Shown here: one piece after another, positions 27,401 through 46,367 of the stretch
Numbering within the stretch: position 1 is the first letter of the stretch
Layout of the letters: every line of letters begins with the position of its first letter
Source of the DNA: a phage
DNA length: 48,737 bases
Direction: 5' to 3' (one strand)
Sequence record: PZ452607.1
The notes under the pieces: generated by a model
The model's input: only the letters and a program-made list of their open reading frames with translations
What the model was told of the DNA's origin: nothing
The model's database searches: none
Program-made: the position numbers and the translations under genes

Positions 27401-27444
27401 ATAGCACTTTTTGCTAAAAACGTTTACTTTATGCCGTGTATTAT
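27401..27444 (+). promoter_or_regulatory. box + hairpin + -10 element upstream of helicase
   Basis: ATAGCACTTTTTGCTAAAAAC, 22-nt spacer, TATTAT; inverted repeat AACGTTTAC/GTAAACGTT around -10. Confidence 0.5.
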
Positions 27445-27487
27445 AGCGTAAACGTTACAACGATTCAAAGGATTAATAGCCGTGACA

Positions 27488-29500
27488 ATGAACATTAAAA
27501 AACAGATTGCATTACTTGGCGATGACTATATAAAGAGAACTCAGGAGCGATTTACTGTTGGTGAGGTTGTTCCTTATCCGTACCAGGTTGTTGCTTATGC
27601 CGAGATCGCGAAACGCCTATCAAATTACGAGCATCCATTCTTCGTTAAAGCGTCTGTATCCGCAGGTAAGACAATCATCTTCGCTATGGTGGCAAAGCAG
27701 TGTCAGAAAATGGGCTTAAAAATGCTTGTCCTGGCTCGTCAGGGTGAGATTGTCGATCAGGATAGCGAAGAGATCGACAACTTTGGGGTAACGAACTCCA
27801 TCTTCTCAGCGTCACTTGGAATCAAGTCCTGCTACTTCCCGATCGTGGTTGGCTCAGAGGGTACTGTTGCAAATGGCCTCGACAATGAGTTAGCTGATTT
27901 CGTCCCGCATGTAATTGGGATCGACGAATGTCACCAGGTGGATTGGGAAGACCTTGCGCAAGCCATCGAGGGTAAGGAAACAATGGAACAAATGAGGGGC
28001 GAGAAAGGGAAAATTATCATGGACGGAGATATTCCCCTGATTGGTAATGATGGAAAGCCTTTGCTTGGAACTAAGCGCAGTCAGTACACGATCGTAATCA
28101 TGGAAATGATGCGGCGCTGTAAAAAGGTTCACGGTCACGATCTCAGAATATTTGGTATGACTGGATCTGAATTTCGTGGCGTAGTTCCTATTCTGGTAGA
28201 GAATCCGAAAGCATTGGGATTCTGGCGTGAGCGAGTAACTGATATCGACACAAACTATCTGATTGAGTTCGGCTCTGTCGTTCCGACTATATTCGGATCA
28301 ACAGACGGAGTTCATTACGATCTTGATAAGTTCAAGGCGTCTAGCGAGGACGGAGTGCAGGACTTTACAGAGAAAGACATGAAGGCTATGGAAGATGAGA
28401 TCCTTCATGATAAATCTCTGACTCAGCGAATCATGCAAATGGTCGCCAAAAAGGCAGAAGAACGCAATGCGGTCCTGATTACATGTGCTGGTGTGCGCCA
28501 CTGCAAAGAGGCAGCGGCAGCACTTCCTCCGGGAAGCACCTATGCAATTATTACTGGCGACACAGACAACAAAGCGCGCAAGAAGATTCTTGACGATGTA
28601 AGGGCCGGAAAAATTAAATACACCTTTCAGGTAATGGCGCTCACTACTGGCGTTAACGTTCCAAATTGGGATTTCAGTGTCATACTCCGCAAGATAGGAT
28701 CGCTCACTCTGTTGATTCAACTTTTGGGTAGGGGTATGCGACTGCTTAAATACTGGCAGGTTGCTGAAGGAATGGTTAAGCAGGACCATCTGGTATGGGA
28801 TTTTGCAGGTACGATGGATGAGCTGGGTCAGCTTTATTTCGATCCGATACTTGAGCAGGCGCAATTCCAGAAGCGTTTTGAAAACGGCAAAGATCCGAAA
28901 ACATGTCCGAAATGCGGTTGCGTAAATAGCTTCTATGCTCGACGATGCGTTAATGTCATTGATGGTGAGCGTTGCGATCATTTCTGGACTTCTCAGATTT
29001 GTGAGGACCAGGTTGACGAGCGAACCGGGAAAATCCTTGTTAAAGGATGCGGTGCAGAGAATGACGTTGTTGCGCGAGTCTGTCGTTGTTGTGATGCTTC
29101 TCTTGTCGATCCTAACCTGAAGTTATCCGGTAAGGCGTACACCAAGAATGACTGGTATGAAGTAAAGAATTTTGAGGTTACGCTAACCAAAAACCAGAAA
29201 GGCATAATATACAAATACACTCTGATTAACGACGATGGTGATGAGTTCAAGGCGTATGAAAAATTCTTCCCCGAGTCTGACTCTAAGATTTGCGGTACGC
29301 TATGGAAAACTAAAGGTGTACTTCCTCATGTGTCAGATCCTAAAATGCGCCGCTACTTTATCGGAATGAAGAACGCCATCAAGATTTTGCAATACTCACA
29401 TCATATTGCTCACCCGGTGCGCGTAACTCATCGTCGCAACCAGAAGAAAGAAGATATCATCTCACGCAAAGACTTCGGTATGGAGGATATCCCGGAATGA
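27488..29500 (+). CDS. superfamily-2 helicase with C-terminal Cys-rich zinc-binding region
   Basis: Walker A SAGKT, DECH box, later helicase motifs, C-terminal CxxC clusters; alternative GTG start at 27482. Confidence 0.7.
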   Translation: MNIKKQIALLGDDYIKRTQERFTVGEVVPYPYQVVAYAEIAKRLSNYEHPFFVKASVSAGKTIIFAMVAKQCQKMGLKMLVLARQGEIVDQDSEEIDNFGVTNSIFSASLGIKSCYFPIVVGSEGTVANGLDNELADFVPHVIGIDECHQVDWEDLAQAIEGKETMEQMRGEKGKIIMDGDIPLIGNDGKPLLGTKRSQYTIVIMEMMRRCKKVHGHDLRIFGMTGSEFRGVVPILVENPKALGFWRERVTDIDTNYLIEFGSVVPTIFGSTDGVHYDLDKFKASSEDGVQDFTEKDMKAMEDEILHDKSLTQRIMQMVAKKAEERNAVLITCAGVRHCKEAAAALPPGSTYAIITGDTDNKARKKILDDVRAGKIKYTFQVMALTTGVNVPNWDFSVILRKIGSLTLLIQLLGRGMRLLKYWQVAEGMVKQDHLVWDFAGTMDELGQLYFDPILEQAQFQKRFENGKDPKTCPKCGCVNSFYARRCVNVIDGERCDHFWTSQICEDQVDERTGKILVKGCGAENDVVARVCRCCDASLVDPNLKLSGKAYTKNDWYEVKNFEVTLTKNQKGIIYKYTLINDDGDEFKAYEKFFPESDSKICGTLWKTKGVLPHVSDPKMRRYFIGMKNAIKILQYSHHIAHPVRVTHRRNQKKEDIISRKDFGMEDIPE

Positions 29501-29913
29501 TTACAGACAAAGGTGATTATTTAGAATTTTACGAGAGAGACACAAGCGACACTCGAAAGGAGGATGCTCATCAGGTGGATTGTGTATCTTGGCTGAAATA
29601 CAATTTTCCTCACCTTCTATTTTGGCACACTGTCAATGAAGGTGAAAAAACAATCACATCGGCGCTCAGGGATGAGCAGGCAGGATTACTTAAAGGCGTG
29701 TCAGACTTCGTTATCCTGATTGGTGTTAACTCACGATACCCGTTTGCAGCAATCGAACTTAAGCGGGTTAATAAGTCAGGCAAAGGAAAGGCGTCACCAG
29801 TCAGCGACAAGCAAAGGGAATTTCTCCAAAAGGTCAGGGAGCGTGGCGGCTTCTCTGCCGTCGCATACGGATTCGGGCAATTCAAGATCGCAATTTACGA
29901 AATGATGAAATAG
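29497..29913 (+). CDS. VRR-NUC domain nuclease
   Basis: PD-(D/E)xK-like D..ELK core; overlaps helicase stop, a common helicase/VRR-NUC pairing. Confidence 0.55.
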   Translation: MITDKGDYLEFYERDTSDTRKEDAHQVDCVSWLKYNFPHLLFWHTVNEGEKTITSALRDEQAGLLKGVSDFVILIGVNSRYPFAAIELKRVNKSGKGKASPVSDKQREFLQKVRERGGFSAVAYGFGQFKIAIYEMMK

Positions 29914-29953
29914 CACTTTTTGTTAAAACTGCCGGGATGGAATCTGGCATTAT
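29909..29953 (+). promoter_or_regulatory. box + -10 element upstream of methyltransferase
   Basis: AATAGCACTTTTTGTTAAAAC, 22 nt, CATTAT; TAG of box is the stop of VRR-NUC gene. Confidence 0.45.
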
Positions 29954-29980
29954 TATCTCACCAAAACGAGAGGAATAAAA

Positions 29981-30694
29981 ATGAAAGACTTTAATGATAT
30001 CGAAACTATCGACTTTGCAGAAACTGGTTGCTCATTCACTCGCGAAGCAATAGCATCAGGCGGTTATTATCAGGCATTGAAAACGCCAACCTGTAAAGAG
30101 ATTTCAGGGCGTCGATACAAGGGGACAAATACCCCTGACGCTGTTCGTGATTTATGGTCAACTCCGCGAGAGGTTATTGCATACCTTGAGGGTCGTTATG
30201 GGAAATATGATCTCGACGCTGCGGCAAGCGAAGAAAATAAAGTTTGCGAGAAGTTTTACTCTCAGGAAACAAACTGCTTAAAACGTTGGTGGGGAAAGAA
30301 TAAGCACGTTTGGTTAAATCCTCCTTATAGCCGACCTGATATATTTGTCAAGAAGGCCATTGAGCAAATGGAGCACAACAATCAGATCGATATGCTTTTA
30401 CCTGCAGATAACTCTACTGCGTGGTTTACTGAAGCGCGGCAGAACGCAGCTGAAATAATCTGGATTGAAGCGGACTTGACTGAGGATATTGACGGCAATG
30501 AATACGCACGATCCGGTCGCCTGGCTTTCATATCCGGTGAAACTGGAAAGGCCGTAGACGGTAATAACAAAGGTTCGGTAATTTTTATTATGCGCGAACT
30601 TAAAGAAGGTGAGGTGCAACAGACTCACTACATCCCAATCACAAGCATTTGCCCTTCGGTGAAAAACAAACGAGCAAAGGTGAGGAAAGTATGA
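29981..30694 (+). CDS. DNA N6-adenine methyltransferase (Dam-type, NPPY motif)
   Basis: Catalytic NPPY motif and upstream SAM-binding-like region. Confidence 0.65.
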   Translation: MKDFNDIETIDFAETGCSFTREAIASGGYYQALKTPTCKEISGRRYKGTNTPDAVRDLWSTPREVIAYLEGRYGKYDLDAAASEENKVCEKFYSQETNCLKRWWGKNKHVWLNPPYSRPDIFVKKAIEQMEHNNQIDMLLPADNSTAWFTEARQNAAEIIWIEADLTEDIDGNEYARSGRLAFISGETGKAVDGNNKGSVIFIMRELKEGEVQQTHYIPITSICPSVKNKRAKVRKV

Positions 30695-30942
30695 TGAGCG
30701 AAAAAATGGTTCCTGTTAAATTAACTGAGCAAGGTTTATGGCTACTTTATCGAGCTACGTGCTGCGAAATTATGGAGCGAAACGGATTGACTCAGGATGT
30801 TATTGGTTGCGATCTGTGGGAGTTCACTAGTTCTCTTGATATGTCTTTCGATGAGATAAAAAATGAATACATAGAGAACTGGCCTTCAATCATACAGAAA
30901 GACGTGGAAGAACTTAAAGCTGATACAATCGTACAGCACTAA
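30691..30942 (+). CDS. hypothetical protein
   Basis: RBS GGTGAGGA; ATGA overlap with previous gene. Confidence 0.4.
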   Translation: MMSEKMVPVKLTEQGLWLLYRATCCEIMERNGLTQDVIGCDLWEFTSSLDMSFDEIKNEYIENWPSIIQKDVEELKADTIVQH

Positions 30943-30976
30943 TTGCTAAAACTACCCGGCGAAAGTCGGGTATAGT
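30935..30976 (+). promoter_or_regulatory. box + hairpin + -10 element
   Basis: AGCACTAATTGCTAAAAC, 22 nt, TATAGT; hairpin ACCCGGC gaaa GTCGGGT. Confidence 0.5.
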
Positions 30977-31008
30977 TATTTCATAGAAACGAAATGAGGA
31001 ATCAGAAG

Positions 31009-31218
31009 ATGGCACGCATTAACGCAAACTTTTTCAATATCGCTCAGCAGTCCGCAAAAATGGCTGTTCATATTACGAACAAGCAAGGCGGCAACTTCGA
31101 TTGGGATATTGCTATGAACTTCCTTAAAATGTCTTATTACCGTTGCTCAGTTGAAGAAGTCGAAGGCTTCATCTCTGACGTGGAGAAATTAACTAATGCT
31201 GATAAAAAAGCAAGGTAA
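31009..31218 (+). CDS. hypothetical protein
   Basis: RBS GAGGAA before ATG 31009; preceded by box/-10 element. Confidence 0.4.
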   Translation: MARINANFFNIAQQSAKMAVHITNKQGGNFDWDIAMNFLKMSYYRCSVEEVEGFISDVEKLTNADKKAR

Positions 31219-31468
31219 GCGCGAAGTGTGGGAGCACGCAAAGGAATGCGGCATCTCAGACGATATAGCATTAATTGCTAAATACTTTGATATAAAGGAT
31301 GTTAGCATTATATCAAACGGCAAGATTTCATTTATGGAAGGTATGCCGAGAAAAATGCAAAGAGTTCCAGCCACTCCATCACTTGAGTTTTACCGCGAAG
31401 AGGGAAAGAGAATTGAGCGAGAAAGAAAATCCACAAAAAACGGCAAGTCTTCCAGGCTTAAATATTAA
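31196..31468 (+). CDS. hypothetical protein
   Basis: ORF overlapping end of previous gene. Confidence 0.3.
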   Translation: MLIKKQGKREVWEHAKECGISDDIALIAKYFDIKDVSIISNGKISFMEGMPRKMQRVPATPSLEFYREEGKRIERERKSTKNGKSSRLKY

Positions 31469-31778
31469 TGCGGACGAATAACAGGCAATATGGATCGGGA
31501 AAAAGCAGGTTAAGCAAATCCCTTTCTCTGACTGGTTGCCACCTGACTTTGTTAATGTGCTTTGCACTATCGGTATTGAGCAGGAGTTGCATATAGGTTA
31601 CTACTCACCTGGCCGAAACAGTATGATGCTTGAGGTTGACGGAAAGCTCGTTGAGTTTAAATCTTCAGATCTAGGATTCTGGTTAAAGGCTGTGGCATGA
31701 AACTTTATTTTGCTGTAGTATTAACACCGCTAATTTCATTTTCAGTAATGTATTTCATTATCATGTAAGGATTAAAAT

Positions 31779-32912
31779 ATGTCACAAGCTAAAATCACTA
31801 CCGAGCAACTTATCGAAGAGCGCATGAGCGGCCTGACACTTCGCGAGATCGCGGAAAAGTACGGTATGCACATTCGCACTGTCGAGGCGCGTCACGCAAA
31901 ACTTGCAAAAGAAGGCCACTTCCACGGCAACGAGCATGTTGCTAAGATGGTTCCGGAAGGCTTCATGGTAAAAGGCACGTCAACCATGATTGACGCGGAA
32001 GGTAACGAGAAGATTCGTTGGGTTAAGACATCAGTTGATAATGAGCGCCTTGAGGTTCTAATGGAAAAAGCGCGTGAAGCATTCTGTTCAGAGTTGCCTA
32101 AGGCTATTCCATCTGAATCACCTGACGTTAGTTTTGATGAAGACACGCTTGCGATGTATCCAGTTTTTGATTTGCACATTGGTGCTCTTGCTCACAAACA
32201 TGAGTGCGGCGAAAACTACGACACAGCGACAGCAGAGAAGGTTATGAATGGGTTCTTTGACTACGCTGTAGATAAGGCGCCAAACTCAAAGAATGCCGTA
32301 TTGGTATTGGGTGGCGATTTCCTACATTACGACTCTTTGGAGTCTAAGACTCCAGCGTCAGGCCATTACTTAGATTCTGACAGTCGTTACGCTAAGCTTG
32401 TTTATGTCGCAATCCGATCAGTACGACGCGCAGTCTCTCGAATGCTGGAGAAGCACCAAGTTATTGATATTAAAGCAATAAGTGGGAATCACGACGAATC
32501 AGGGATGGTTTGGTTGCGCGCTGCGCTTGCTGCATTTTATGAAGATGAGCCGCGCGTAAATGTTGATGTTAGCCCTGCCGCAATGATGATGACCAGCTTT
32601 GGTAAGACCCTTATTGGATACACTCACGGGCATCAAATGCGAAAAGCAGATACTCGACTAAGTGTTATGGCAACTGATTTTCGTAAGTTGTTTGGTCAAA
32701 GTGATTACGTTTACACGCATAGCGGTCACTGGCACAGTCAAAAGATTACAGAAACAAACTTGGGTATTGATGAGGTTCATGGTCAGCTTGGAAGTCCTGA
32801 CGCATACTCTGCCAATGGCGGTTGGAGGTCTCAGCGTCAAGCTGCTGTGATTGTCTATCACAAGGAATTTGGTGAGGTTGGACGATTCATTTGTCGACCT
32901 GAAATGTTCTAA
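31779..32912 (+). CDS. calcineurin-like metallophosphoesterase with N-terminal HTH-like region
   Basis: Motifs DxH (DLHIG), GDxxD (GGDFLHYD), GNHD, GH, GHxH (HSGHWH) in canonical order. Confidence 0.6.
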   Translation: MSQAKITTEQLIEERMSGLTLREIAEKYGMHIRTVEARHAKLAKEGHFHGNEHVAKMVPEGFMVKGTSTMIDAEGNEKIRWVKTSVDNERLEVLMEKAREAFCSELPKAIPSESPDVSFDEDTLAMYPVFDLHIGALAHKHECGENYDTATAEKVMNGFFDYAVDKAPNSKNAVLVLGGDFLHYDSLESKTPASGHYLDSDSRYAKLVYVAIRSVRRAVSRMLEKHQVIDIKAISGNHDESGMVWLRAALAAFYEDEPRVNVDVSPAAMMMTSFGKTLIGYTHGHQMRKADTRLSVMATDFRKLFGQSDYVYTHSGHWHSQKITETNLGIDEVHGQLGSPDAYSANGGWRSQRQAAVIVYHKEFGEVGRFICRPEMF

Positions 32913-32956
32913 ATAGCACCTTTTGTTAAAACAGTACCCGCGAAAGCGGGTATTAT
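32913..32956 (+). promoter_or_regulatory. box + hairpin + -10 element upstream of HNH gene
   Basis: ATAGCACCTTTTGTTAAAAC, 22 nt, TATTAT; hairpin ACCCGC gaaa GCGGGT. Confidence 0.5.
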
Positions 32957-32984
32957 TGTTTTATAGAAACAAGAGGAGATTGCA

Positions 32985-33467
32985 ATGAACTGGCACGAGC
33001 ATTACGAATATAGGGATGGTGTTCTATATCACAAGGTAAAGCCATGCAGAAGGCATGATGTAAATATTGGGGATGTTGCTGGAAGGGTTGCCAAAAACGG
33101 CTATCACTATGTTGTTCACAAGAACAGGCCGTATAAGAGATCTCGAGTTATATGGGAGATGTTTAATGGTGAGATACCAGATGGTTTTGTTATAGATCAT
33201 CTGAATCACAATGCCACCGATGATAGGATCGATAACCTTGAGTGTAAGCCAAGAAGAGAGAATATGGTTAATGTTAAGTTAAGGATTGATAGCACGACCG
33301 GAGTAACTGGCGTATCAATAAAGAGGGATAACAAGTGGAGGGCGTACATAACAATTATGGGTAAGCAGAAGTGCAAGAGCTTTGACACGTTTGAGGAAGC
33401 TTGCGCGCAGAGGATTGAATGGTCAGTAACTCATGATTTTCACCCAAATCACGGTGGAACATACTAA
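32985..33467 (+). CDS. HNH homing endonuclease
   Basis: HNH core (DHLNHN..DDRIDNLE) plus AP2-like DNA-binding tail; paralogous to 37042..37581 and 45258..45752. Confidence 0.75.
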   Translation: MNWHEHYEYRDGVLYHKVKPCRRHDVNIGDVAGRVAKNGYHYVVHKNRPYKRSRVIWEMFNGEIPDGFVIDHLNHNATDDRIDNLECKPRRENMVNVKLRIDSTTGVTGVSIKRDNKWRAYITIMGKQKCKSFDTFEEACAQRIEWSVTHDFHPNHGGTY

Positions 33468-33485
33468 TAGCACCTTTTACCTAAC
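33466..33485 (+). promoter_or_regulatory. degenerate box copy
   Basis: AATAGCACCTTTTACCTAAC directly after HNH stop. Confidence 0.3.
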
Positions 33486-33539
33486 CCGCGCCACAGAAGT
33501 GCGGCATAGTAACCACATCGAAAACAGAGATGCTATATC

Positions 33540-33716: not shown

Positions 33717-33737
33717 CAATAGCATTCATCACCTTAC

Positions 33738-33769
33738 AGGCTGGCATGATTTACATGCTGGCCTTTTTG
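33738..33769 (+). terminator. intrinsic terminator
   Basis: AGGCTGGCATG..CATGCTGGCCT stem (two wobble pairs) then T5. Confidence 0.45.
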
Positions 33770-33771
33770 CG

Positions 33772-33800: not shown

Positions 33801-33834
33801 CGACTCACTTGTTCAAAAAATATATGGTGAGATT

Positions 33835-35061: not shown

Positions 35062-35469
35062 TCAAATTCTTCTTTCGTAAGCTGGAGCCTTGCGCACAAT
35101 TCGACGTTCCGATCTATCAATGTTTCTACGTTCGCCAAACAAGTCTTCATCACTCATTTCTCCAATGTGCATCATTTCCCACGTATATCGATTGTTGTAG
35201 CCATCAATACACATCAGCTTCATCATTACCGGGCGCTTGATCTTTCCCTTGCACCAGTAAAATCCACCCTTGCAATCAAGATAACCCTCAGTCACGCAGC
35301 GTGCGCAAAACTCCTTAGACAGCGCGCTTGTAAATTCACGGCGAGTCATTCCGGCGGCCTTAGCAAATCGCTCACTTTCCTTGTGGGCGTATATAAATTT
35401 CGCTATGTGCTGTCGAGTGTATTTGTCGTAACCTTCGCAGAACCTGAACAGATCTAAAAGAAGAAGCAT
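35062..35469 (-). CDS. hypothetical protein
   Basis: 135-aa Cys-rich ORF downstream of ATPase gene; 3' end overlaps another frame (34950..35153). Confidence 0.35.
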   Translation of the reverse strand: MLLLLDLFRFCEGYDKYTRQHIAKFIYAHKESERFAKAAGMTRREFTSALSKEFCARCVTEGYLDCKGGFYWCKGKIKRPVMMKLMCIDGYNNRYTWEMMHIGEMSDEDLFGERRNIDRSERRIVRKAPAYERRI

Positions 35470-35473
35470 ATTA

Positions 35474-37042: not shown

Positions 37043-37581
37043 CACAATAAACTCCTTAGTTGACGGCGTGAATGATACACCGTCAATGGTACACGCGTTT
37101 TGCAAAAAGTGCTATTCGATCCGTGATTCTCATGAAAACCGTATAGCCTTTCCGCTTCCTTCCTTGCTTTAGCCGCTGCATCCAGCGTCATGAAGGTCCC
37201 TAAGTGTTTTGTCTTTTTATTTATGGTTATGTTTGCCGTGTATCTATTTGTTTTTTTATTCCAATACACTCCCATAACTCCTGTGTTTGATGACACTACT
37301 CCCTTGTTTCTTAGGTTGTCTTGCCTAGTTACTAGCCTGAGATTCTCAATTCTGTTATCGTCTCTTTCATGGTTTATGTGGTCTACATCCATTCCTTCTG
37401 GTATGTTTCCGTAGTGTATTTTCCATACTATTCGATGGGCGTATTCAAATACACCTCCTGGAAAACATATTGACCGATAACCTTTTTTATTAACAGTTCC
37501 GGCAAGTAGATTTCGTCTTCTTCCGATTCTCCACTCTTTCCAGTACAGTCTCCCGCTAACGTATTTCAGTTCATCTTTCAT
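37042..37581 (-). CDS. HNH homing endonuclease
   Basis: HNH core (DHINHERDDNRIENLRLV) plus AP2-like tail; C-terminal about 25 codons read through the promoter box of the downstream gene; stop overlaps next start (TGATG). Confidence 0.7.
   Translation of the reverse strand: MKDELKYVSGRLYWKEWRIGRRRNLLAGTVNKKGYRSICFPGGVFEYAHRIVWKIHYGNIPEGMDVDHINHERDDNRIENLRLVTRQDNLRNKGVVSSNTGVMGVYWNKKTNRYTANITINKKTKHLGTFMTLDAAAKARKEAERLYGFHENHGSNSTFCKTRVPLTVYHSRRQLRSLL
37072..37116 (-). promoter_or_regulatory. box + hairpin + -10 element upstream of ATPase gene (inside 3' end of HNH ORF)
   Basis: Minus strand AATAGCACTTTTTGCAAAAC, 22 nt, TATCAT; inverted repeat TTGACGGTG/CGCCGTCAA around -10. Confidence 0.5.
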
Positions 37582-37994
37582 AAGTATTTACTCTCAAAGG
37601 TTGTGCCGTCTGCGATACTAAAACCAACCTCTTCGCGGAATAAGGTCCAGCGGCAACCGTCCTCATCAAAGATGTAACCAGCTACGCCTCCAAGAGCGCG
37701 ACCGCTTTCTACCTGGTAACGCTTTCCAACCTTGAATGATTTTTTCATTGGGTTGCGATGGTCAAGTCCGGTGCACTTGAGCGTCTTTGTTTTCAACTCG
37801 GTGAACTTCGCGAAGAAGATTTCATCAGATCCGTGAATATGTAATTCATCATGCTTTTCAAGTTTTAAATACTTCCCGCATTTTAACTTTACTTCACGAG
37901 TATCATCATAGCGCTCACGACCTTTGTACAGATTGTTTACTTCGAATCCTGTGATTTTGTCTGCGGAAGTGCATTTAAGTTTGATTGATTTCAT
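37578..37994 (-). CDS. hypothetical protein
   Basis: 138-aa ORF with box/-10 element upstream. Confidence 0.4.
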   Translation of the reverse strand: MKSIKLKCTSADKITGFEVNNLYKGRERYDDTREVKLKCGKYLKLEKHDELHIHGSDEIFFAKFTELKTKTLKCTGLDHRNPMKKSFKVGKRYQVESGRALGGVAGYIFDEDGCRWTLFREEVGFSIADGTTFESKYL

Positions 37995-38030
37995 TGTGTT
38001 CGCTCCTGATTGGTTATCTTGAATAAGGCC

Positions 38031-38076
38031 ACTTTATCAAATGACCTTACGGCAATATTAACAAATCGTGCTATTT
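38031..38076 (-). promoter_or_regulatory. box + hairpin + -10 element
   Basis: Minus strand AATAGCACGATTTGTTAA, 22 nt, TAAAGT; box follows TAA stop of acidic-protein gene. Confidence 0.5.
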
Positions 38077-38512: not shown

Positions 38513-38545
38513 TTTTGATTCCTTTGTTTTGTTTGGTATGGGAGT

Positions 38546-38592
38546 AATATACCTTACTCCCCGATGTGTGTCTTTAGCAATTTGTGCTATCA
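38546..38592 (-). promoter_or_regulatory. box + hairpin + -10 element
   Basis: Minus strand GATAGCACAAATTGCTAAAG, about 22 nt, (G)TATATT; stem GGGGAGTA/TACTCCC. Confidence 0.45.
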
Positions 38593-39631: not shown

Positions 39632-39663
39632 AATACTTTCCTCGTTTACTGTTGATGTGATGA

Positions 39664-39709
39664 ATCATACCCAGTAGACATGGATAAGTCGTTAGCAAAA
39701 AATGCTATT
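39664..39709 (-). promoter_or_regulatory. box + -10 element upstream of leftward early block
   Basis: Minus strand AATAGCATTTTTTGCTAACG, 23 nt, TATGAT. Confidence 0.45.
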
Positions 39710-39787
39710 CCAATAATTGCTCATTATTCCATCAATACTGGAATATCTGGAATAATCACTATCATGATTGATCTCTAATGATGAGAT

Positions 39788-39827
39788 GTGATTGTTGCAT
39801 GGTGTGCAACTGTTGATGTGATTGTTT
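39788..39827. repeat. direct repeats GATGTGATTGTT (third related copy near 39652)
   Basis: gatgtgattgttgca...ctgttgatgtgattgtttc; ctgttgatgtgatgaatca at 39650..39668. Confidence 0.5.
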
Positions 39828-39893
39828 CTTAGAATGCAATGATTGTGAGAGGGGGGATCTAGTGTTACCAGGTTCGCCTGGTAGTCATCTCCA

Positions 39894-39915
39894 TTTTTAG
39901 CAAAAAGTGCTATCG
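39894..39915 (-). promoter_or_regulatory. box copy, second (distal) copy upstream of leftward early block
   Basis: Minus strand GATAGCACTTTTTGCTAAAAAT followed by hairpin ACCAGG cgaa CCTGGT. Confidence 0.4.
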
Positions 39916-40190
39916 ATTACGATTACGCTTGATTGCGTGTTAATCATTGTATATGATTTGCCTAAATCGCAATCGTATACAAAATTACGCCAAATTACGC
40001 CTTATAATATACATATAGATATATGTATATATATAATATATAAGTGTTTTTTTTATTTATATATATAGATACTATTATTTGTAATATGGTTGTATAGCGT
40101 GTCTTTTATGTTAATCGTTGGATGCTCTGATTATGATGCTCATGTTTATATATACAGTAGTTTTATCGGCGCATATTTATTTAGGGAAAT

Positions 40191-40217
40191 CGATTAACAC
40201 GATTAACACGATTAACC
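40191..40217. repeat. tandem 9-bp repeat CGATTAACA x3
   Basis: cgattaaca cgattaaca cgattaacc; related copies CGATTACGATTACG at 39914..39927 and AAATTACGCC x2 at 39982..40001. Confidence 0.6.
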
Positions 40218-40260
40218 ACACTTAAAATCGCCCCGCAGACCTTGACACATGCGGGTCGTC

Positions 40261-40293
40261 GTGTAACACTACGATTAGAGACACGGTGTTACA
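40261..40293. repeat. inverted pair GTGTAACAC ... GTGTTACA upstream of first rightward early gene
   Basis: Half-sites about 17 bp apart, just downstream of a TTGACA hexamer at 40242. Confidence 0.5.
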
Positions 40294-40331
40294 TGTTAAT
40301 CATGGTGTATATTGAAACTAAGGAGAAAGCT

Positions 40332-40907: not shown

Positions 40908-40919
40908 GGAGAAGTAATT

Positions 40920-41246
40920 ATGTTTAATATCAAACCATTAACAGAAGCAGAGAAACAGGCTCAGGCCAAGCAAACCGAAAACATCCAAGTGATCGCTGAT
41001 GCGCTGATTGGTAAGAGGTCAATCAAAATAAACCTCGACACTGTTGGTCAGTCATTTTTTACTAAAGGTTTGGATAAGTACGTTATAAATGTGAAGGCGA
41101 GAGACCTGGTGGCGAGAATTCAAAAGCTAAACAATCAAAAGCTAAAGCTCATCAAGGTCGAAGGCAACATGTGCGAAATTGAGAACCTCAGCGCACCAGA
41201 CCCGAATAAGTGGGAAATCACCGATGTCGAGTTTATCGTAGAATAG
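40920..41246 (+). CDS. hypothetical protein
   Basis: RBS AAGGAGAAG; stop TAG lies inside a box copy. Confidence 0.45.
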   Translation: MFNIKPLTEAEKQAQAKQTENIQVIADALIGKRSIKINLDTVGQSFFTKGLDKYVINVKARDLVARIQKLNNQKLKLIKVEGNMCEIENLSAPDPNKWEITDVEFIVE

Positions 41247-41286
41247 CACTTTTTGTTAAAACCGGATCGGGGTATCTTGCTATAGT
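41243..41286 (+). promoter_or_regulatory. box + hairpin + extended -10 element
   Basis: AATAGCACTTTTTGTTAAAAC, 22 nt, TGcTATAGT; stem GGGGTA/TACCCC. Confidence 0.55.
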
Positions 41287-41324
41287 TACCCCATCAAAAC
41301 GAGATACCAATCAGAGGAATCACC

Positions 41325-41555: not shown

Positions 41556-41560
41556 TAATC

Positions 41561-41788
41561 ATGCCACGTTACAGCAACCTAACTCAACTAACCCGCGTCA
41601 ACGGGCACATGATCCCGGCAAAATCCACTCACTACGCAATGGGAGCAAAGCACGGATTGTATTTCAAATGGCGCGGTCAATGGAACTTCACGGTTATTCG
41701 TAATTTCTACATTAGAGTTACAGGTGATGACCCGCAATCGGTCGTAGAGAACTCAATCGGCGACAACAAGATCGAGGTGCTGAAATGA
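41561..41788 (+). CDS. hypothetical protein
   Basis: RBS GAGGAG shortly after previous stop. Confidence 0.45.
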   Translation: MPRYSNLTQLTRVNGHMIPAKSTHYAMGAKHGLYFKWRGQWNFTVIRNFYIRVTGDDPQSVVENSIGDNKIEVLK

Positions 41789-41895
41789 ACTTCAACATAA
41801 TTGCTTTCTGGTCTGCCGTATGGTTCTTTTGCGTAGGTCATGTTGTGGTTGGAATCGTAATCATGTTGCTACTGTGTGCGGGAGCGTTCGAATGA
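41785..41895 (+). CDS. small hydrophobic membrane peptide (36 aa)
   Basis: ATGA overlap with previous gene; one predicted TMD; not in ORF track. Confidence 0.35.
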   Translation: MNFNIIAFWSAVWFFCVGHVVVGIVIMLLLCAGAFE

Positions 41896-42065
41896 TGCGG
41901 ATTCTGATTTGCATGATGGCGGCGGTCGCCATGGCTATCCTGGTAGTGTCCGGCTGCGGCGAGGCCAGGGATAGCTGTCATGAAACCGGGAGCCAGGTTA
42001 CTACTTTCGTGATGGTTGGCAACGTATTGCTACCAATAACATCAAATGAAATCACTTGCGAATAG
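41892..42065 (+). CDS. small lipoprotein (57 aa)
   Basis: Signal peptide with lipobox VVSGC; start overlaps stop of preceding peptide; stop inside a box copy. Confidence 0.4.
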   Translation: MMRILICMMAAVAMAILVVSGCGEARDSCHETGSQVTTFVMVGNVLLPITSNEITCE

Positions 42066-42105
42066 CACTTTTTGTTAAAACTCAACTCCGGGGTTGCGAT
42101 ATAGT
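42061..42105 (+). promoter_or_regulatory. box + hairpin + -10 element
   Basis: AATAGCACTTTTTGTTAAAAC, 22 nt, TATAGT; stem GGGGTT/AACCCC. Confidence 0.55.
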
Positions 42106-42136
42106 AACCCCATCGACAACGAACGAGGACGCAAAC

Positions 42137-42625
42137 ATGAAAATTAAATTACTTAGCAATGGCGGTTACAAGGGATTCACCCGCGACCTGGAAGCTGACC
42201 CTATCGTGGTTGACGCGGTTAAGTGCGACTCAAGTACTGGAGGCTACCGCGTTAAGGTTGATGACCTTGTAAAAGCTGGCGTGTACGATCTTGATTATGG
42301 CCTGTCGGTTAGCCCGGTATTTGGCCCAGCTGACTTCAACGAGAAAGACGGAACGATGTTCTTTTTTGATTGGGAAGTGAAGGCAAACATCAAGCCGCGC
42401 AAGGTTCGTCTTCTCAGCAATGGCGGCTACCCGATGCGACCAGGTTATGAGAATCGCACGTTCCCGGTTATCGTTGACTTCATTGGGACAACTGACAACT
42501 TGGTATACGTTAGCCATGAGCAACTTAAGGCAGTTGGATTCGTTGGCGGTATGAATAAAGAAGCGCTTTGCTTCTTCCATCGATGTCCAGAGCCGATCGG
42601 TATTGAGTGCGAGTTAGTATACTAA
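42137..42625 (+). CDS. hypothetical protein with internal duplication
   Basis: Two copies of K(I/V)(K/R)LLSNGGY motif about 100 residues apart; box/-10 element upstream. Confidence 0.45.
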   Translation: MKIKLLSNGGYKGFTRDLEADPIVVDAVKCDSSTGGYRVKVDDLVKAGVYDLDYGLSVSPVFGPADFNEKDGTMFFFDWEVKANIKPRKVRLLSNGGYPMRPGYENRTFPVIVDFIGTTDNLVYVSHEQLKAVGFVGGMNKEALCFFHRCPEPIGIECELVY

Positions 42626-42666
42626 GCACGAATTGTTAAAAGGGGATTTGGCCTGACTGGTATAAT
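42621..42666 (+). promoter_or_regulatory. box + hairpin + extended -10 element
   Basis: AAGCACGAATTGTTAAAAG, 22 nt, TGgTATAAT; stem GGGGATT/AATCCCC. Confidence 0.55.
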
Positions 42667-42696
42667 CCCCACATCAACCACTAATAGGAAAGCATC

Positions 42697-42894
42697 ATGT
42701 TAAAATTAAAAGATATTCAGTTCCCTGTAGTATTTAACACTATTAGCTGCGGTAAAATAACCTGCCACAGCAAAGATCGCGCAACAGATTCATCATTCAA
42801 TGAGTGCCACCCGTCTATTGTTGGTAATCTTATTGAGCTTCATAACAATCACAATCCTGATAACATCCCATCTCTTCCATATTATGTTGAGTGA
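42697..42894 (+). CDS. hypothetical protein
   Basis: Cys/His-containing 65-aa ORF downstream of box/-10 element with TATAAT. Confidence 0.4.
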   Translation: MLKLKDIQFPVVFNTISCGKITCHSKDRATDSSFNECHPSIVGNLIELHNNHNPDNIPSLPYYVE

Positions 42895-42984
42895 GTCGGG
42901 CCTGGTTGGAAGGTTGGTCGCTCCATCTTCCATGCAGCAAAGCCAGAAATCAAGCCAGCGCTACAATGCACTCAGATCGAGAAC

Positions 42985-43182
42985 ATGCCATTGAGCGCGA
43001 CACTAAAAGGTGTCCAACTTGATAGCGAATCCTGGATCGAGATTACCGCCACGCCTAAAACTATTGAGGTACATGATGATGTGGTGATTCTCCTGTTGCA
43101 TTACGGCAGCTTTAAGCACAAGACGGTATCAGGTGAAATCAGCATTAAGCGCGGAACTCTTGTCCGCTACGAGGTGAAATAA
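42985..43182 (+). CDS. hypothetical protein
   Basis: ORF with weak RBS. Confidence 0.3.
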   Translation: MPLSATLKGVQLDSESWIEITATPKTIEVHDDVVILLLHYGSFKHKTVSGEISIKRGTLVRYEVK

Positions 43183-43331
43183 TGACTGCATGGGTCTTGA
43201 TTATCTTGATGAGCAAAGGTCCGGATCACGTATACATGGAAAGTCAACAATCATGCAACAAGGCACGGGAAGTTATCGCAGAGAACAAGCCGTTCGGATA
43301 TGAAGTAAAAACTATGTGCGTTAAACGATAG
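43182..43331 (+). CDS. small hypothetical protein (49 aa)
   Basis: ATGA coupling with previous gene; N-terminal hydrophobic stretch; stop TAG inside box. Confidence 0.3.
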   Translation: MTAWVLIILMSKGPDHVYMESQQSCNKAREVIAENKPFGYEVKTMCVKR

Positions 43332-43371
43332 CACGAATTGCTAAACCTTCCGCAAGGCCATTTGATATAGT
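43327..43371 (+). promoter_or_regulatory. box + hairpin + extended -10 element
   Basis: GATAGCACGAATTGCTAAAC, 22 nt, TGaTATAGT; stem GGCCA/TGGCC. Confidence 0.55.
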
Positions 43372-43411
43372 GGCCTTATTGAAGCACGACAACCAACTGG
43401 AGGTAAAATTT

Positions 43412-43786
43412 ATGAAATTCGAATGTATCAGCGATAACACCAAAAAATTTACTGTTGGCAAAATTTACGATGTTCCGACTGAGCACACAGAGCAAACCGT
43501 AGCTCTGACCGACGACACGGGCCGCAACCGAATTGCAACCGTAACTCACAACGGTGAAGGTCTTCGCTGGAATAGCGGCGGCACTAAGTTCGCAACGTTC
43601 GACAAGAAGCGCAAGCGCACCTTCCGCGTCAACGGCAATGTTGCAGCTAACAAGATCCATAACGTCAAGCCGTCGGAAGTTGACCGCAAGCCAGCGCTGA
43701 AGTTTAAAGAGAAGGTGGATTTATTCAATCTTGCCGCCTCGCTTGTTCTCCTGGTCGCTGCTATTTCGCTGCTTTCCATCATGTAA
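43412..43786 (+). CDS. hypothetical C-tail-anchored membrane protein
   Basis: RBS GGAGG; soluble basic domain then one C-terminal TMD; followed by terminator. Confidence 0.45.
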   Translation: MKFECISDNTKKFTVGKIYDVPTEHTEQTVALTDDTGRNRIATVTHNGEGLRWNSGGTKFATFDKKRKRTFRVNGNVAANKIHNVKPSEVDRKPALKFKEKVDLFNLAASLVLLVAAISLLSIM

Positions 43787-43793
43787 TGCTAAT

Positions 43794-43828
43794 GGGGAAT
43801 CGACTCTGAACGGTTCCCCTTTCTTTTG
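43794..43828 (+). terminator. intrinsic terminator
   Basis: GGGGAA..TTCCCC stem then T-rich tract. Confidence 0.5.
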
Positions 43829-43934
43829 GAGAAAACACTATGCCAGACTTTTCTAACTGGAATAACGAGCCGCCATCATTTCAGGAGTTGCTATTCTGCC
43901 TCCTGGTCCTGACATTATCTCTTAAGGGTGTTTT

Positions 43935-44153
43935 ATGGCTACTATCATGACAGTAGAAGATGCAGCACGCGATGCAGTGGAAGGAATGCGCCCAAATACC
44001 TCCAGAATAGCACACTACTACAAATCTGAGGTGTCGGTAGTGCAATTGGTCCACGAAATTTTAAGGCTCCCACAAGTCGATTCAGCGCGCGTTGTGACGT
44101 GCTTAAAAAATTATTTTTGCATCACTATTAAAACGAATAGCACGAATTGCTAA
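43935..44153 (+). CDS. hypothetical protein
   Basis: 72-aa ORF; 3' end reads through box copy; overlaps a possible 36-aa hydrophobic ORF at 43840..43950. Confidence 0.3.
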   Translation: MATIMTVEDAARDAVEGMRPNTSRIAHYYKSEVSVVQLVHEILRLPQVDSARVVTCLKNYFCITIKTNSTNC

Positions 44154-44180
44154 AACCTATCAAGGGGAATACGCTATGAT
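44136..44180 (+). promoter_or_regulatory. box + hairpin + -10 element
   Basis: AATAGCACGAATTGCTAAAAC, 22 nt, TATGAT; stem GGGGAAT/ATTCCCC. Confidence 0.55.
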
Positions 44181-44210
44181 TCCCCTACACCAACAAACGA
44201 GGAAGCGATC

Positions 44211-44657
44211 ATGAAACACTTAATCTGCATTGAAGCGCCTAACGATCAATACACCCTGCATGGACTTGGTGTGTTCAAAGGTCACTACATTACCGCAGGA
44301 ACTTACGATGCTCGTCGCGGCGATGGCGACCTAATGATTACGTCAAAAGAAGTAAATCCGTACATCATGCAGAATCTTGGCAATAACGAATATATGGCCT
44401 ATGGCTGCAACGCGGTGTACAAGCACGTTAAGATCCGCAAGCGTGTTGTGCGTGCATTCAAGAAGATTGCAATTAAATACTGGAAAATGAGCAAGAAAGA
44501 TGCCGGACGTTGGGCGCGCAACGTTGCAGATTCATACTTCTATCGTAACGGCGAATCCTGCTACTTCCTGATCGATGAACTTATGGAAAACTACGGTGGC
44601 GACTTCAGCCAGGGTAGCTTTGATGACTGGGCCAACTATGAGATCAGTTGCTGGTAA
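44211..44657 (+). CDS. hypothetical protein
   Basis: RBS GAGGAAG; box/hairpin/-10 element upstream. Confidence 0.45.
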   Translation: MKHLICIEAPNDQYTLHGLGVFKGHYITAGTYDARRGDGDLMITSKEVNPYIMQNLGNNEYMAYGCNAVYKHVKIRKRVVRAFKKIAIKYWKMSKKDAGRWARNVADSYFYRNGESCYFLIDELMENYGGDFSQGSFDDWANYEISCW

Positions 44658-44700
44658 TAGCACGAATTGCTAAAACTTGCTCAAGGGCATTTGTTAGAAT
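44656..44700 (+). promoter_or_regulatory. box + hairpin + extended -10 element
   Basis: AATAGCACGAATTGCTAAAAC, 22 nt, TGtTAGAAT; stem AAGGGCATT/AATGCCCTT. Confidence 0.55.
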
Positions 44701-44740
44701 GCCCTTCGTTGAGTTAAGCAACCAATCAGAGGAATAAATC

Positions 44741-45271
44741 ATGGATAAAATCACAATTTGGGGCCAGACAATCAACCTGTTTCTCGGCACGCGCCGAGTG
44801 GCAATCTTTGACTTTGACGGGACACTTAGCGATGGATCTGGTCGACTTCACCTGCTGCCAACAAAGGATTTGCACTTGACTGAAAGCTGGTCTGAGTTTA
44901 ACCGAGCGGCAATATTTGATAACCCAATCCAGAGCACGATCGATGTGATGAACTCTATGTTTGCCGCTGGGTATCATGTGATCATTTTAACCGGGCGAAG
45001 TGATGAGGTGCGTTACGCATCTGAGTTATGGCTTAAGCATCACGGCGCTCGATATGATTACTTAGTCATGCGACCGCATACCGACAACCGCAAAGACACG
45101 GTAATGAAAGAAGAGGCAGTGCGCGCTATCGGCATTGATAACATTCTTGCGGCTTGGGATGACTCAGTGAATATAATAAAAAAATTCAGAGATCTAGGGA
45201 TAACCACATATCAGGTTTGTGAATATGCCTGTGATAGTCGAGAGGATTTAAATAGTCATGGTGTCGATTGA
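44741..45271 (+). CDS. HAD-superfamily phosphatase
   Basis: Motif I FDFDGT, motif II ILTGR, motif IV WDDS. Confidence 0.6.
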   Translation: MDKITIWGQTINLFLGTRRVAIFDFDGTLSDGSGRLHLLPTKDLHLTESWSEFNRAAIFDNPIQSTIDVMNSMFAAGYHVIILTGRSDEVRYASELWLKHHGARYDYLVMRPHTDNRKDTVMKEEAVRAIGIDNILAAWDDSVNIIKKFRDLGITTYQVCEYACDSREDLNSHGVD

Positions 45272-45752
45272 TAACAAATCAATGGTAAGAGAGTTATTTA
45301 CTTATTCTGACGGCGTTCTGTATTGGAAGGCCAAATCATCTAAATACAGTAGAACTAAAATAGGAGGCGCGGCAGGAAGCAAGGATAAAGACGGATACAT
45401 AATAATCAGAGTAAGAAACGAAACTAGAGGCGCTCACAGGCTTGTATGGATATACCATAATGGCAAGATACCTGATGGAATGGAGGTAGACCATATGGAT
45501 GGAGACATAACAAACAATAGAATAGAAAACCTAAGATTGGTAACGAGAACCATAAATAACAGGAATCAAAAAAAGAGATCTGATAACACAACCGGAGTAT
45601 CCGGTGTAACTTTCATGAAAGATAGAGGAAAGTATAGGGCGCAAGTTAGAAACAAGAGACTCGGGCAGTTCGACACAATAGAAGAGGCCGCCAAAGCAGT
45701 AAAGGATGAGCGGGATAGATTAGGTTTATTCACAAAAAGACACGGGGTGTAA
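45258..45752 (+). CDS. HNH homing endonuclease
   Basis: HNH core (DHMDGDITNNRIENLRLV) plus AP2-like tail; lies between phosphatase and kinase genes. Confidence 0.75.
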   Translation: MVSIDNKSMVRELFTYSDGVLYWKAKSSKYSRTKIGGAAGSKDKDGYIIIRVRNETRGAHRLVWIYHNGKIPDGMEVDHMDGDITNNRIENLRLVTRTINNRNQKKRSDNTTGVSGVTFMKDRGKYRAQVRNKRLGQFDTIEEAAKAVKDERDRLGLFTKRHGV

Positions 45753-45754
45753 AC

Positions 45755-46327
45755 ATGAAAACAGCTATCATTTTAAACGGCGCACCTGGTGCGGGAAAGG
45801 ACACTATCGGATGCATCCTGGCTGACACTTACGATCATGTAGCGCTACGCAGCTTCAAAGCGCCAATGTTTGAGATTGCCCGAGCAATCCTGGGTGAGAC
45901 TAATTTCGAGTATTTCATGTTCTTGTATGAGGACCGTCGCTATAAAGAAGAGCCAGCGTCAATCCTGAACGGTAAAAGCCCGCGCCAGTTTATGATCTGG
46001 ATTAGCGAGGAGGTCATCAAGCCGCAGTTCGGAAATCGCTTCTTCGGTATGCGAGCGGAAAGTAAGGTGAAAGAGTCGCATTCACTTTCGGTATTTACTG
46101 ACGGTGGATTCAAAGACGAGATCTTGCAGATGATTGAAGGTGACATCCAGGTCAAGCTGTGTCGAATCCATCGCAACGGTTGCAACTTTGACAACGACAG
46201 TCGCGACTATATCTATCTTGACGATATGATCGGGGTCAACGGTTATCAGGAGTGTGACTTCTTTTCTGTCGAAGGCCATCCAGAAATTACCGCTCAGCAC
46301 ATAGCCGCCACGTTCATCAATAAATAG
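45755..46327 (+). CDS. P-loop nucleotide/polynucleotide kinase
   Basis: Walker A GAPGAGKDT at N-terminus; size fits dNMP kinase or Pnk kinase domain. Confidence 0.55.
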   Translation: MKTAIILNGAPGAGKDTIGCILADTYDHVALRSFKAPMFEIARAILGETNFEYFMFLYEDRRYKEEPASILNGKSPRQFMIWISEEVIKPQFGNRFFGMRAESKVKESHSLSVFTDGGFKDEILQMIEGDIQVKLCRIHRNGCNFDNDSRDYIYLDDMIGVNGYQECDFFSVEGHPEITAQHIAATFINK

Positions 46328-46367
46328 CACGAATTGCTAAAACGTCGGTGTGGTGATTTGATATAGT
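46323..46367 (+). promoter_or_regulatory. box + extended -10 element
   Basis: AATAGCACGAATTGCTAAAAC, 22 nt, TGaTATAGT; TAG of box is the kinase stop codon. Confidence 0.55.

Follow-up and report, generated by a model that had tools for sequence, protein, structure and literature searches.

The repeated promoter box of coliphage T1 reads as a near-consensus class II marbox

How does coliphage T1, which belongs to the seven classic T phages, direct the RNA polymerase of its host to its early and middle genes? Genome papers on T1-like phages repeatedly note too few promoters, and the T1 record gives a single promoter across 23 kilobases (kb) of early/middle genes. We have analysed a 20-base-pair (bp) box that recurs at gene junctions of the phage sequence PZ452607.1, a stretch of 48,737 bp (the window), with particular attention to its positions 27401-46367, a span that contains the replication, recombination and lysis block plus two blocks of small early genes. 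The window is 99.9% identical to coliphage T1 (NC_005833/AY216660) and permuted, its base 1 being the start of the large terminase gene and its position 39794 being base 1 of T1; 15 substitutions were counted against AY216660 across the 23 kb compared, and the total length is 99 bp shorter. T1 is a Tunavirus of the Drexlerviridae. The curated GenBank record of T1 annotates ribosome-binding sites and terminators, with one promoter and zero repeats in the part corresponding to 25.7-48.7 kb of the window, and a comparison of the window with Rfam gave zero matches.

The box reads ATAGCAC-N3-TTGYTAAAAC. At up to 3 mismatches it has 21 matches in the window, against 0.27 expected from shuffled sequences, and none of 100 shuffles reached 21. 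The original prediction, which had described a dyad-symmetric box at a fixed distance from a -10-like hexamer and had proposed a comparison with shuffled sequence, placed the copies well, as a box was present at essentially all of the positions it listed, within 0-5 nucleotides (nt). Its consensus has to be replaced: with four free bases, AATAGCAC-N4-TTGYTAAAAC has 0 matches even at 3 mismatches, and N3 is correct. It was right that the half-sites TAGCA and TGCTA are separated by 5 bp, and that 22 nt lie between TTGYTA and the -10 (equal to 18 nt from the end of the 20-mer); at this distance TTGYTA is excluded as a -35, as had been argued, and no -35-like hexamer stands at 16-18 nt from the -10. 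The list itself needs some changes. It lacked the copy at 26933 (minus strand), 5' of the primase gene; it counted 39894 (minus strand) among the promoter-associated copies, where no -10 was found; and it set aside as degenerate or non-promoter the minus-strand copies at 6123 and 9887, which are near-perfect boxes with good extended -10s, antisense to late genes. The idea of a regulon gained support, in that the copies cover nearly all early and middle transcription units, and canonical -35/-10 promoters are not enriched between 26.8 and 46.5 kb (28 found, against 36.9 expected from shuffles).

The geometry of the modules is tight. Measured from the end of the 20-mer, the distance to the -10 is 18 nt in 18 T1 copies, 19 nt in two (38571 and 39689, both minus strand) and 17 nt in one degenerate copy (22400, plus strand); 19 T1 copies are oriented along the downstream gene, with 70-84 nt from box start to start codon. 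A search of relatives, suggested along with the box, recovered the same box, orientation rule, 18-nt spacing and -10 in KP1801 (Klebsiella; Webervirus), Rtp and JeanPiccard (Braunvirinae) and Vc1 (Jhansiroadvirus), which hold 14-18 box copies each and have capsid proteins just 50-55% identical to that of T1. We pooled 68 promoter-type copies from the five phages for the conservation statistics given here and below, numbering from the first box base. Positions G4, C5, A6, A16 and A17 are invariant, and A1, A3, C7, T11, T12, G13, T15 and A18 nearly so; positions 9-10 are exclusively A or T in roughly equal numbers, at position 14, 37 of the 68 copies have C and 25 have T, and positions 19-20 are weak. 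The sequence of the 18-nt spacer is unconserved apart from G at -14 (54/68, 79%) and T at -15 (28/68), the -10 being TG-extended in about 40% to half of the promoter copies. The -10 reads TAtaaT, with T at the first position in 58 and at the third in 57 of the 68 copies (A at the second and T at the sixth position were required when the copies were selected), and gives way to a C-rich discriminator. The seventh base past it is A in 60 of the 68 copies, after which the leader stays close to ATCGAAACGA, and this conserved A is likely to be the start site. Taking it as +1, the box spans -50 to -31, with its centre at about -40.5 and that of the partial dyad at -42, in agreement with the class II geometry first proposed, and the -35 position reads AAAACn.

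What, then, could read such a box? The marbox of MarA has been given by the Grainger laboratory as 5'-gcannwwntgnnaaa-3' (GCANNWWNTGNNAAA) (PMC12052159). At 0 mismatches this published motif occurs 20 times in the window, where 0.82 would be expected, and boxes account for 18 of these sites. The 19-mer marbox consensus AYNGCACNNWNNRYYAAAY, which was reportedly set out by Martin et al. in 1999, has 21 window sites at up to 1 mismatch, against 0.95 expected. Box positions G4 C5 A6 with C7, and A16 A17 with A18, correspond to the GCAC 'A site' and the AAA 'B site' of the marbox, and the variable box positions (8-10, 14 and 20) are the degenerate positions of the marbox, including the A/T-only pair 9-10 (ww) and the pyrimidine at 14 (Y). 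For SoxS, the recognition elements are GCAC and CAAA (PMC9638938), and RamA recognises CACT-N7-AAA at micF (PMC8811837).

The placement agrees as well. In Escherichia coli MG1655, micF has the marbox ACAGCACTGAATGTCAAAAC, 16/20 identical to the T1 box at 30933, followed by 18 nt, TAGAAT, 7 nt and the first MicF base, while the best marboxes of sodA and inaA lie, along transcription, exactly 18 nt 5' of TATAAT and TATAGT, respectively; the mar promoter carries its marbox ATGCCACGTTTTGCTAAATC, 16/20 identical to the T1 consensus, in reverse. Promoters of class II possess a marbox in forward orientation that overlaps the -35 and is centred between -36 and -55 (PMC12052159), the micF site being centred at about -41 to -41.5 (PMC8811837, PMC9638938). 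In T1 we found a consensus-fitting, asymmetric 20-bp site in forward orientation that overlaps the -35 at a fixed distance from the -10, and an absent or weak -35 with a recognisable sigma-70 -10. Sequence match, orientation, spacing and micF geometry thus bring the T1 modules into line with class II marbox promoters in every sequence-level respect and, judged by its letters and position, the T1 box is a near-consensus marbox in class II placement: forward, replacing the -35 and 18 nt from an often-extended -10.

As a repeat, the element has been seen before. A 2024 re-annotation of phage TLS described a 21-nt direct repeat, aaATAGCACnnnTTGnTAAAA, in 21 copies along the direction of transcription and about 76 nt 5' of start codons, with 'similar repeats' in T1, Rtp and Rogue1 given as unpublished observations (PMC11447400). 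Just three sigma-70-like promoters were identified in TLS, and the function of the repeat was left open, with stoperators, enhancer-binding sites and UP elements as the options (PMC11447400). The TLS repeat and the T1 box are the same element; the TLS paper (PMC11447400) does not mention a -10 at a fixed 18 nt or identity with the marbox, both of which are reported here for T1. The repeat is therefore already published as an unexplained element, but, as far as we could find out, it had not been identified with the class II marbox consensus before: the literature that we searched contained no paper tying T1 or the Drexlerviridae to marbox, Rob, MarA, SoxS or any named transcription factor, and a search for transcript maps of T1-like phages found none. 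The central triplet of the T1 box falls into classes that cluster regionally (GAA at 42623-46324; TAA or AAA at 30933, 31265 and 38571; TTT in the boxes at 27401, 29910, 41243 and 42062 and on the minus strand), and the same classes have been described for the TLS repeat (PMC11447400). They might adjust the response to one or another activator paralogue, or its timing.

It had been proposed that one dimeric factor reads the dyad, and on this point the proposal is unsupported. The dyad TAGCA-N5-TGCTA is real yet partial: 5+5 bp are symmetric, and the box as a whole is weakly dyad-symmetric. G4 is found in 68/68 copies whereas its dyad partner, position 14, is divided between C and T; conservation at C7, T11, A17 and A18 is not mirrored across the dyad; each flank is A-rich, the left one not being T-rich; and the orientation of the promoter-type copies relative to the -10 is fixed. 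The two-fold symmetry of sequence and conservation that marks the site of a helix-turn-helix (HTH) dimer, of the Cro, Mor or CRP types, was not seen. Asymmetric conservation and fixed orientation argue for an asymmetric reading of the box, and GCA-N5-TGY is part of the marbox consensus itself. The pattern of conservation is that of the asymmetric marbox, the site of the monomeric two-HTH proteins MarA, SoxS and Rob.

On balance, we favour the reading that the box promoters are class II promoters activated by host Rob, MarA or SoxS. T1 encodes no detectable AraC/XylS-family (MarA-like) protein. A tblastn search of the window with MarA, SoxS and Rob returned no homologue (best E 0.44); hmmsearch with a hidden Markov model of the three against 541 six-frame open reading frames (ORFs) reached at best E 0.039, in a non-gene frame; profile-profile comparison (hhalign) of 99 conserved ORF families with MarA-like proteins gave a best probability of 2.5%; and Pfam showed no DNA-binding domain in 31 small early/middle ORFs. 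Two T1 proteins labelled 'HTH-like' in GenBank (35062-35469 and 37578-37994, both minus strand) find no backing in Pfam even at E = 10; nor are they paralogues. A scan of 185,579 species genomes with ATAGCACNNNTTGYTAAAA gave single matches in about the number expected by chance, and the enterobacterial cluster among them is one homologous, apparently coding locus, so that the scan is uninformative on the host regulon.

We infer activator binding, activation, start sites and a repressive role, as follows. After entry of T1 DNA, every box would be bound, at -50 to -31, by the host activator; the constitutively abundant Rob would most likely play this part in unstressed cells, and MarA or SoxS (RamA in Klebsiella) would add to it under salicylate, redox agents or bile, or in mar/ram mutants. 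The bound activator would contact region 4 of sigma-70 and the C-terminal domain of the alpha subunit (alpha-CTD), and would so recruit host RNA polymerase to about 19 early/middle promoters that otherwise have only a -10. The same protein would occupy the reversed or -10-less copies at late-gene junctions and would there weaken or block transcription of the late genes.

Several points weigh against a host activator. In the absence of stress, most Rob is sequestered and its activity is low, and there is little MarA or SoxS; T1 nevertheless grows fast in ordinary broth. The TG-extended -10s might work without any activator, giving basal activity. T1 boxes are also tighter than host marboxes: A3 and T11 are conserved though unspecified in both marbox definitions, and T12 though unspecified in the Martin consensus, and such conservation is typical of phage-specific promoter elements. 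The box-bearing phage Vc1 is recorded on Vibrio cholerae. Finally, a conserved phage regulator, gp23, has a canonical promoter directly beside a box, and in its regulatory region, between gp23 and the helicase gene, the box is the sole conserved element besides the -10, as expected if gp23 binds the box.

The protein gp23 (CPTT1_056) is the only clear phage-encoded DNA-binding candidate in T1, and it had been named as a candidate from the start. In the alternative that it brings in, a phage-encoded protein, foremost a gp23 dimer on TAGCA-N5-TGCTA centred at -42, would be the class II activator, and chance or mimicry would account for the likeness to the marbox; the canonical promoter would first supply gp23, which would go on to activate all box promoters, as Mor/C do in Mu or MotA does in T4. 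Its fold, family-wide occurrence, own promoter and adjoining box make this gp23-first cascade a serious rival, one that we hold to be rather unlikely. The AlphaFold model of gp23 (predicted local distance difference test 81) matches solely single-HTH, all-alpha Cro proteins, such as N15 and Xfaso-1 Cro, which speaks against a MarA-like two-HTH fold. The protein was found in 825 phage records, essentially the whole of the Drexlerviridae, the family that carries the box. Its sigma-70 promoter is near-consensus in T1 and KP1801 and, by alignment reading, weaker in Rtp and JeanPiccard, where the promoter scan did not recover it; the -10 overlaps that of the box promoter at 27401, which faces it, and the gp23 transcript crosses the box. 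The half-site centres, 10 bp apart around a dyad centre at -42, would suit a dimeric class II activator.

Against gp23 stand the asymmetry of the conservation (G4 invariant, position 14 C or T; C7, T11 and A17-A18 unpartnered) and the fixed orientation of the box. The fit to two host marbox definitions and to the spacing of micF, sodA and inaA would have to be chance, which we estimate at roughly 1 in 1000 after allowing for many comparable motifs. The predicted recognition helix, NQTVQGWKER in T1 and VRLTNAYRLR in Vc1, differs at most positions between two phages with identical boxes; it retains Q, V, W and R in four phages and is replaced in Vc1. Thus gp23 stays in play as a rival binder, but it is single-HTH and Cro-like, and its predicted recognition helix diverges while the box does not. 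Within the HTH, structural residues alone are invariant, and conservation of gp23 is highest outside it, in a basic segment at the N terminus, which is invariant, and in a conserved part at the C terminus, which suggests a conserved partner or a second function; the gene sits between those for primase and helicase, and its product could serve replication instead. Residues 5-33 form a predicted-disordered basic segment, RIAxSTGEIDKRxINGNNGTRRGKDKKPRKR, with many invariant residues, and residues 100-130 a C-terminal GxxGxRAxxxRxDLxFDxNG motif with a conserved Cys. Genes for gp23 and a T1-like capsid protein, 50-75% identical to those of enterobacterial T1-like phages, are also carried by about 20 'Campylobacter phage' records (including MG065669 and MG065675), the host labels of which look doubtful.

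Copies at late-gene junctions bring in another alternative. A promoter-like site on the plus strand, TTGACG-16-TATTAT (6118-6145), stands just 5' of the major capsid gene, and a reversed box (6123-6142) is exactly its 16-bp spacer; directly 3' of the site there is a terminator-like hairpin with a T-run (CCGTGA..TCACGG TTTTTT; window 6118-6178), and a reversed box occupies the corresponding place in Vc1 (Vc1 position 5711). We speculate that a protein bound at the late-junction boxes may damp late transcription. Taken further, the box could be mainly negative, an operator, roadblock or 'stoperator' that shuts early/middle genes or silences late ones, with the promoters working as activator-independent extended -10 promoters, which we consider improbable. 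Basal activity without a -35 is plausible with G at -14 in 79% and TG in about 40% of copies, and the -10-less or reversed copies at late-gene junctions after terminators (9887, 16077, 25859 and 48155), like the reversed box in the capsid-gene site, would fit; Rtp and JeanPiccard carry a copy at the place equivalent to 25859. The stoperator idea was also raised by the TLS authors (PMC11447400). However, a fixed 18 nt over variable spacers in five divergent phages is needed by an activator that contacts RNA polymerase and not by a roadblock, and very little activity would be expected from unaided promoters with neither TG nor -35 (about half); T1, a virulent phage, has no L5-type repressor, and the identity with the marbox would be left unexplained.

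A last alternative dispenses with any regulator and has RNA polymerase alone read the box, through the alpha-CTD or sigma, as a UP-element-like or unusual upstream element. Parts of the box, which lies 5' of the -10, are rich in A/T (TTTTT, AAAA), and UP elements were among the options of the TLS authors (PMC11447400). Its invariant or nearly invariant positions include G and C (GCAC and G13, that is, positions 4, 5, 7 and 13), and it spans -50 to -31, whereas the A/T tracts of UP elements span -40 to -60; the UP element was rejected on these grounds, and we regard a reading by RNA polymerase alone as very improbable. We know of no RNA polymerase determinant that reads such a sequence at -50 to -31.

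Table 1. Box copies, putative promoters and associated features of the window; spans of box promoters run from box start to predicted +1.
Feature	Coordinates	Strand	Details
Box promoter, helicase gene (T1 Orf22)	27401..27451	+	box 27401-27420 ATAGCACTTTTTGCTAAAAA, 18 nt, TATTAT 27439-27444, predicted +1 27451
Box promoter, Dam methylase gene	29910..29960	+	perfect box, 18 nt, TGgCATTAT
Box promoter, Orf18	30933..30983	+	box ACAGCACTAATTGCTAAAAC; TATAGT; box 16/20 identical to E. coli micF marbox
Weaker box	31265..31315	+	ATAGCATTAATTGCTAAATA, 18 nt, TGtTAGCAT; within small ORF
Box promoter, HNH endonuclease gene (Orf15)	32913..32963	+	-10 TATTAT
Degenerate box 5' of Orf14	33467..33517	+	ATAGCACCTTTTACCTAACC, 18 nt, CATAGT
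Box promoter, Orf75	41243..41293	+	perfect box, 18 nt, TGcTATAGT, TACCCC, then A = predicted +1
Box promoter, Orf71	42062..42112	+	perfect box, TATAGT, stem surrounding -10
Box promoter, Orf70	42623..42673	+	box TAAGCACGAATTGTTAAAAG, TGgTATAAT
Box promoter, Orf68	43328..43378	+	0 mismatches to 19-mer marbox consensus; TGaTATAGT
Box promoter, Orf65	44137..44187	+	perfect box, TATGAT
Box promoter, polynucleotide kinase gene	44657..44707	+	perfect box, TGtTAGAAT
Box promoter, Orf61	46324..46374	+	perfect box, TGaTATAGT
Degenerate marbox-like copy 5' of Erf-like recombinase gene	22400..22449	+	ACGGCATAAATAGCTAAACA, 17 nt, TGtTATAAT
Box promoter, Orf1 (first gene, leftward block)	39657..39708	-	box ATAGCATTTTTTGCTAACGA, 19 nt, TATGAT
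Box promoter, Orf5	38539..38590	-	19 nt, TATATT, stem surrounding -10
Box promoter, Orf7	38024..38074	-	18 nt, TGaTAAAGT, stem surrounding -10
Box promoter, DUF3987 ATPase/helicase gene (Orf9)	37065..37115	-	box within HNH gene 3' end; 18 nt, TATCAT
Box promoter, primase gene	26902..26952	-	box ATAGCATTTTTAGTTAAAAC overlapping gp23 end; 18 nt, TAACAT
Near-perfect box with -10, antisense to late genes	6092..6142	-	TGtTATACA
Near-perfect box with -10, antisense	9856..9906	-	TGaTAAGAT; between terminator after major tail protein gene and next late gene
Box without -10	16077..16096	+	ends 2 nt 5' of J-like tail tip gene start codon
Box without -10	25859..25878	+	between tail fibre and primase genes, both minus strand
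Box without -10	39894..39913	-	in 700-bp non-coding region between divergent gene blocks
Box without -10	48155..48174	+	between annotated terminator and small terminase ribosome-binding site; early/late boundary
T1 gp23 (CPTT1_056)	26936..27388	-	150 amino acids; Cro/YdaS-like single-HTH core, residues 40-100
Canonical sigma-70 promoter of gp23	27440..27468	-	TTGAAT-17-TATAAT; only promoter annotated across 25.7-48.7 kb of T1 record
Embedded stem-loops	27421-27460, 30953-30972, 32933-32954, 41251-41292, 42072-42111, 42643-42672	+	
Embedded stem-loops	43336-43377, 44145-44186, 44665-44706, 46344-46380	+	
Embedded stem-loops	38024-38054, 38539-38570	-	

Most box promoters carry a GC-rich stem-loop in the stretch from box to +1 (Table 1). 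From the box end to just past the start, 60% of the 68 pooled modules fold far better than shuffles (z < -2; mean z -2.6), and the arm sequences vary among the copies (n=68) with their complementarity kept. Two layouts were seen. In the first, the 18-nt spacer is taken up by a GC-rich hairpin that adjoins the T-rich -10, and two such hairpins are annotated terminators of T1; the spacer at 30933 is occupied by a GNRA-loop hairpin, and that at 32913 contains a hairpin annotated in the T1 record as a rho-independent terminator. In the second, the arms flank the -10, with the hexamer in the loop and the discriminator as the 3' arm; this layout has no U-tract and is unexplained. At 41243 the stem GGGGTA/TACCCC surrounds the -10, and at the primase promoter the -10 lies in the loop of a hairpin annotated as a terminator in the T1 record.

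Some further observations concern the surroundings of the boxes. A strong canonical promoter (21276-21303; TTGACT-16-TATAAT, 11/12) stands 5' of the RecE-like exonuclease gene and has an equivalent in Vc1 (20899-20926); ordinary sigma-70 promoters thus serve gp23 and the recombination module, and box promoters most other early/middle genes. Between the divergent gene blocks lie 700 bp of non-coding DNA (39632-40331), base 1 of the T1 record among them, with direct repeats that resemble iterons (CGATTAACA three times, GATGTGATTGTT, AAATTACGCC and GATTACG twice each) and a long block of alternating A/T that contains a TATACA-18-TATAAT site; this region may be an origin or may serve in packaging. 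Orf70 of T1 (record 2904-3389; window 42697-43182) carries an interrupting stop codon in the present isolate.

If the box is read by host activators, the consequences may reach beyond T1. We would tentatively propose, while thinking it somewhat doubtful, that the Drexlerviridae (T1, TLS, Rtp and the Klebsiella Webervirus) have no early/middle promoter-recognition factor of their own and run on host Rob, MarA, SoxS or RamA, acting at consensus class II marboxes. Hosts exposed to bile, salicylate or oxidants, and drug-resistant hosts derepressed for mar or ram, would then show higher phage expression, and the late-junction boxes would act as a brake held by the same protein and released as replicating phage DNA titrates it, an early-to-late timer. 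If this is true, infection by a large, therapeutically used phage family, Klebsiella Weberviruses included, is tied to clinical regulators of multidrug resistance, with a bearing on phage-antibiotic combinations and host range; Rob, an abundant protein of unclear normal role, gains a strong natural target set; and compact activator-dependent promoter parts become available. The marbox reading makes the promoter gap of T1 directly testable with existing reagents, and if gp23 is the binder, the result is still a new, defined pair of phage activator and promoter.

How do the box promoters compare with known systems? Mor and C of phage Mu are dimeric class II activators with sites centred at -43.5, at promoters without a -35. 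T1 resembles them in having a -35-less phage regulon with a site over the -35 position and a partial dyad near -42, but the Mu sites are dyad-symmetric and read by a dimer, whereas the T1 box is asymmetrically conserved and always oriented, and no Mor or C homologue is found among the recognisable T1 proteins. T4 middle promoters have the centre of their MotA box at -30, with 11-13 bp between the box and the -10, and depend in addition on sigma appropriation by AsiA. They share with T1 a conserved box in place of the -35, 5' of a sigma-70 -10, and some sequence (a TGCT core); the MotA box was rejected, as the TGCTA core of T1 lies 22 nt from the -10 and Pfam found no MotA or AsiA domain in the 31 small ORFs. 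Stoperators of the mycobacteriophage L5 type are asymmetric sites for the cognate repressor of a temperate phage and stand within transcription units, in no set position relative to promoter elements. The minority of T1 copies at late junctions would fit; the stoperator was likewise rejected, since most copies lie at a fixed 18 nt from a -10 and T1 is virulent and has no such repressor that could be recognised. MarA itself represses where a backward marbox lies in the core promoter (rob, purA, hdeA). At flgB, too, it binds within the core promoter (PMC12781870). The reversed T1 box at 6123-6142, within the putative capsid-gene promoter, resembles these core-promoter sites. The closest likeness is to the class II mar/sox/rob promoters of E. 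coli (micF, sodA and inaA), which share with T1 a 20-bp asymmetric site in forward orientation that replaces the -35, lies 18 nt from the -10 and is centred near -41. T1 differs from the E. coli regulon in that its sites stand in a virulent phage, as about 19 promoter copies in 48.7 kb that make up most early/middle promoters; its boxes have 0-1 mismatch to the consensus, against 1-3 in the host's own sites, with extra conservation at A3, T11 and T12, and after the box come a stem-loop embedded in the module, a conserved discriminator rich in C and a conserved leader.

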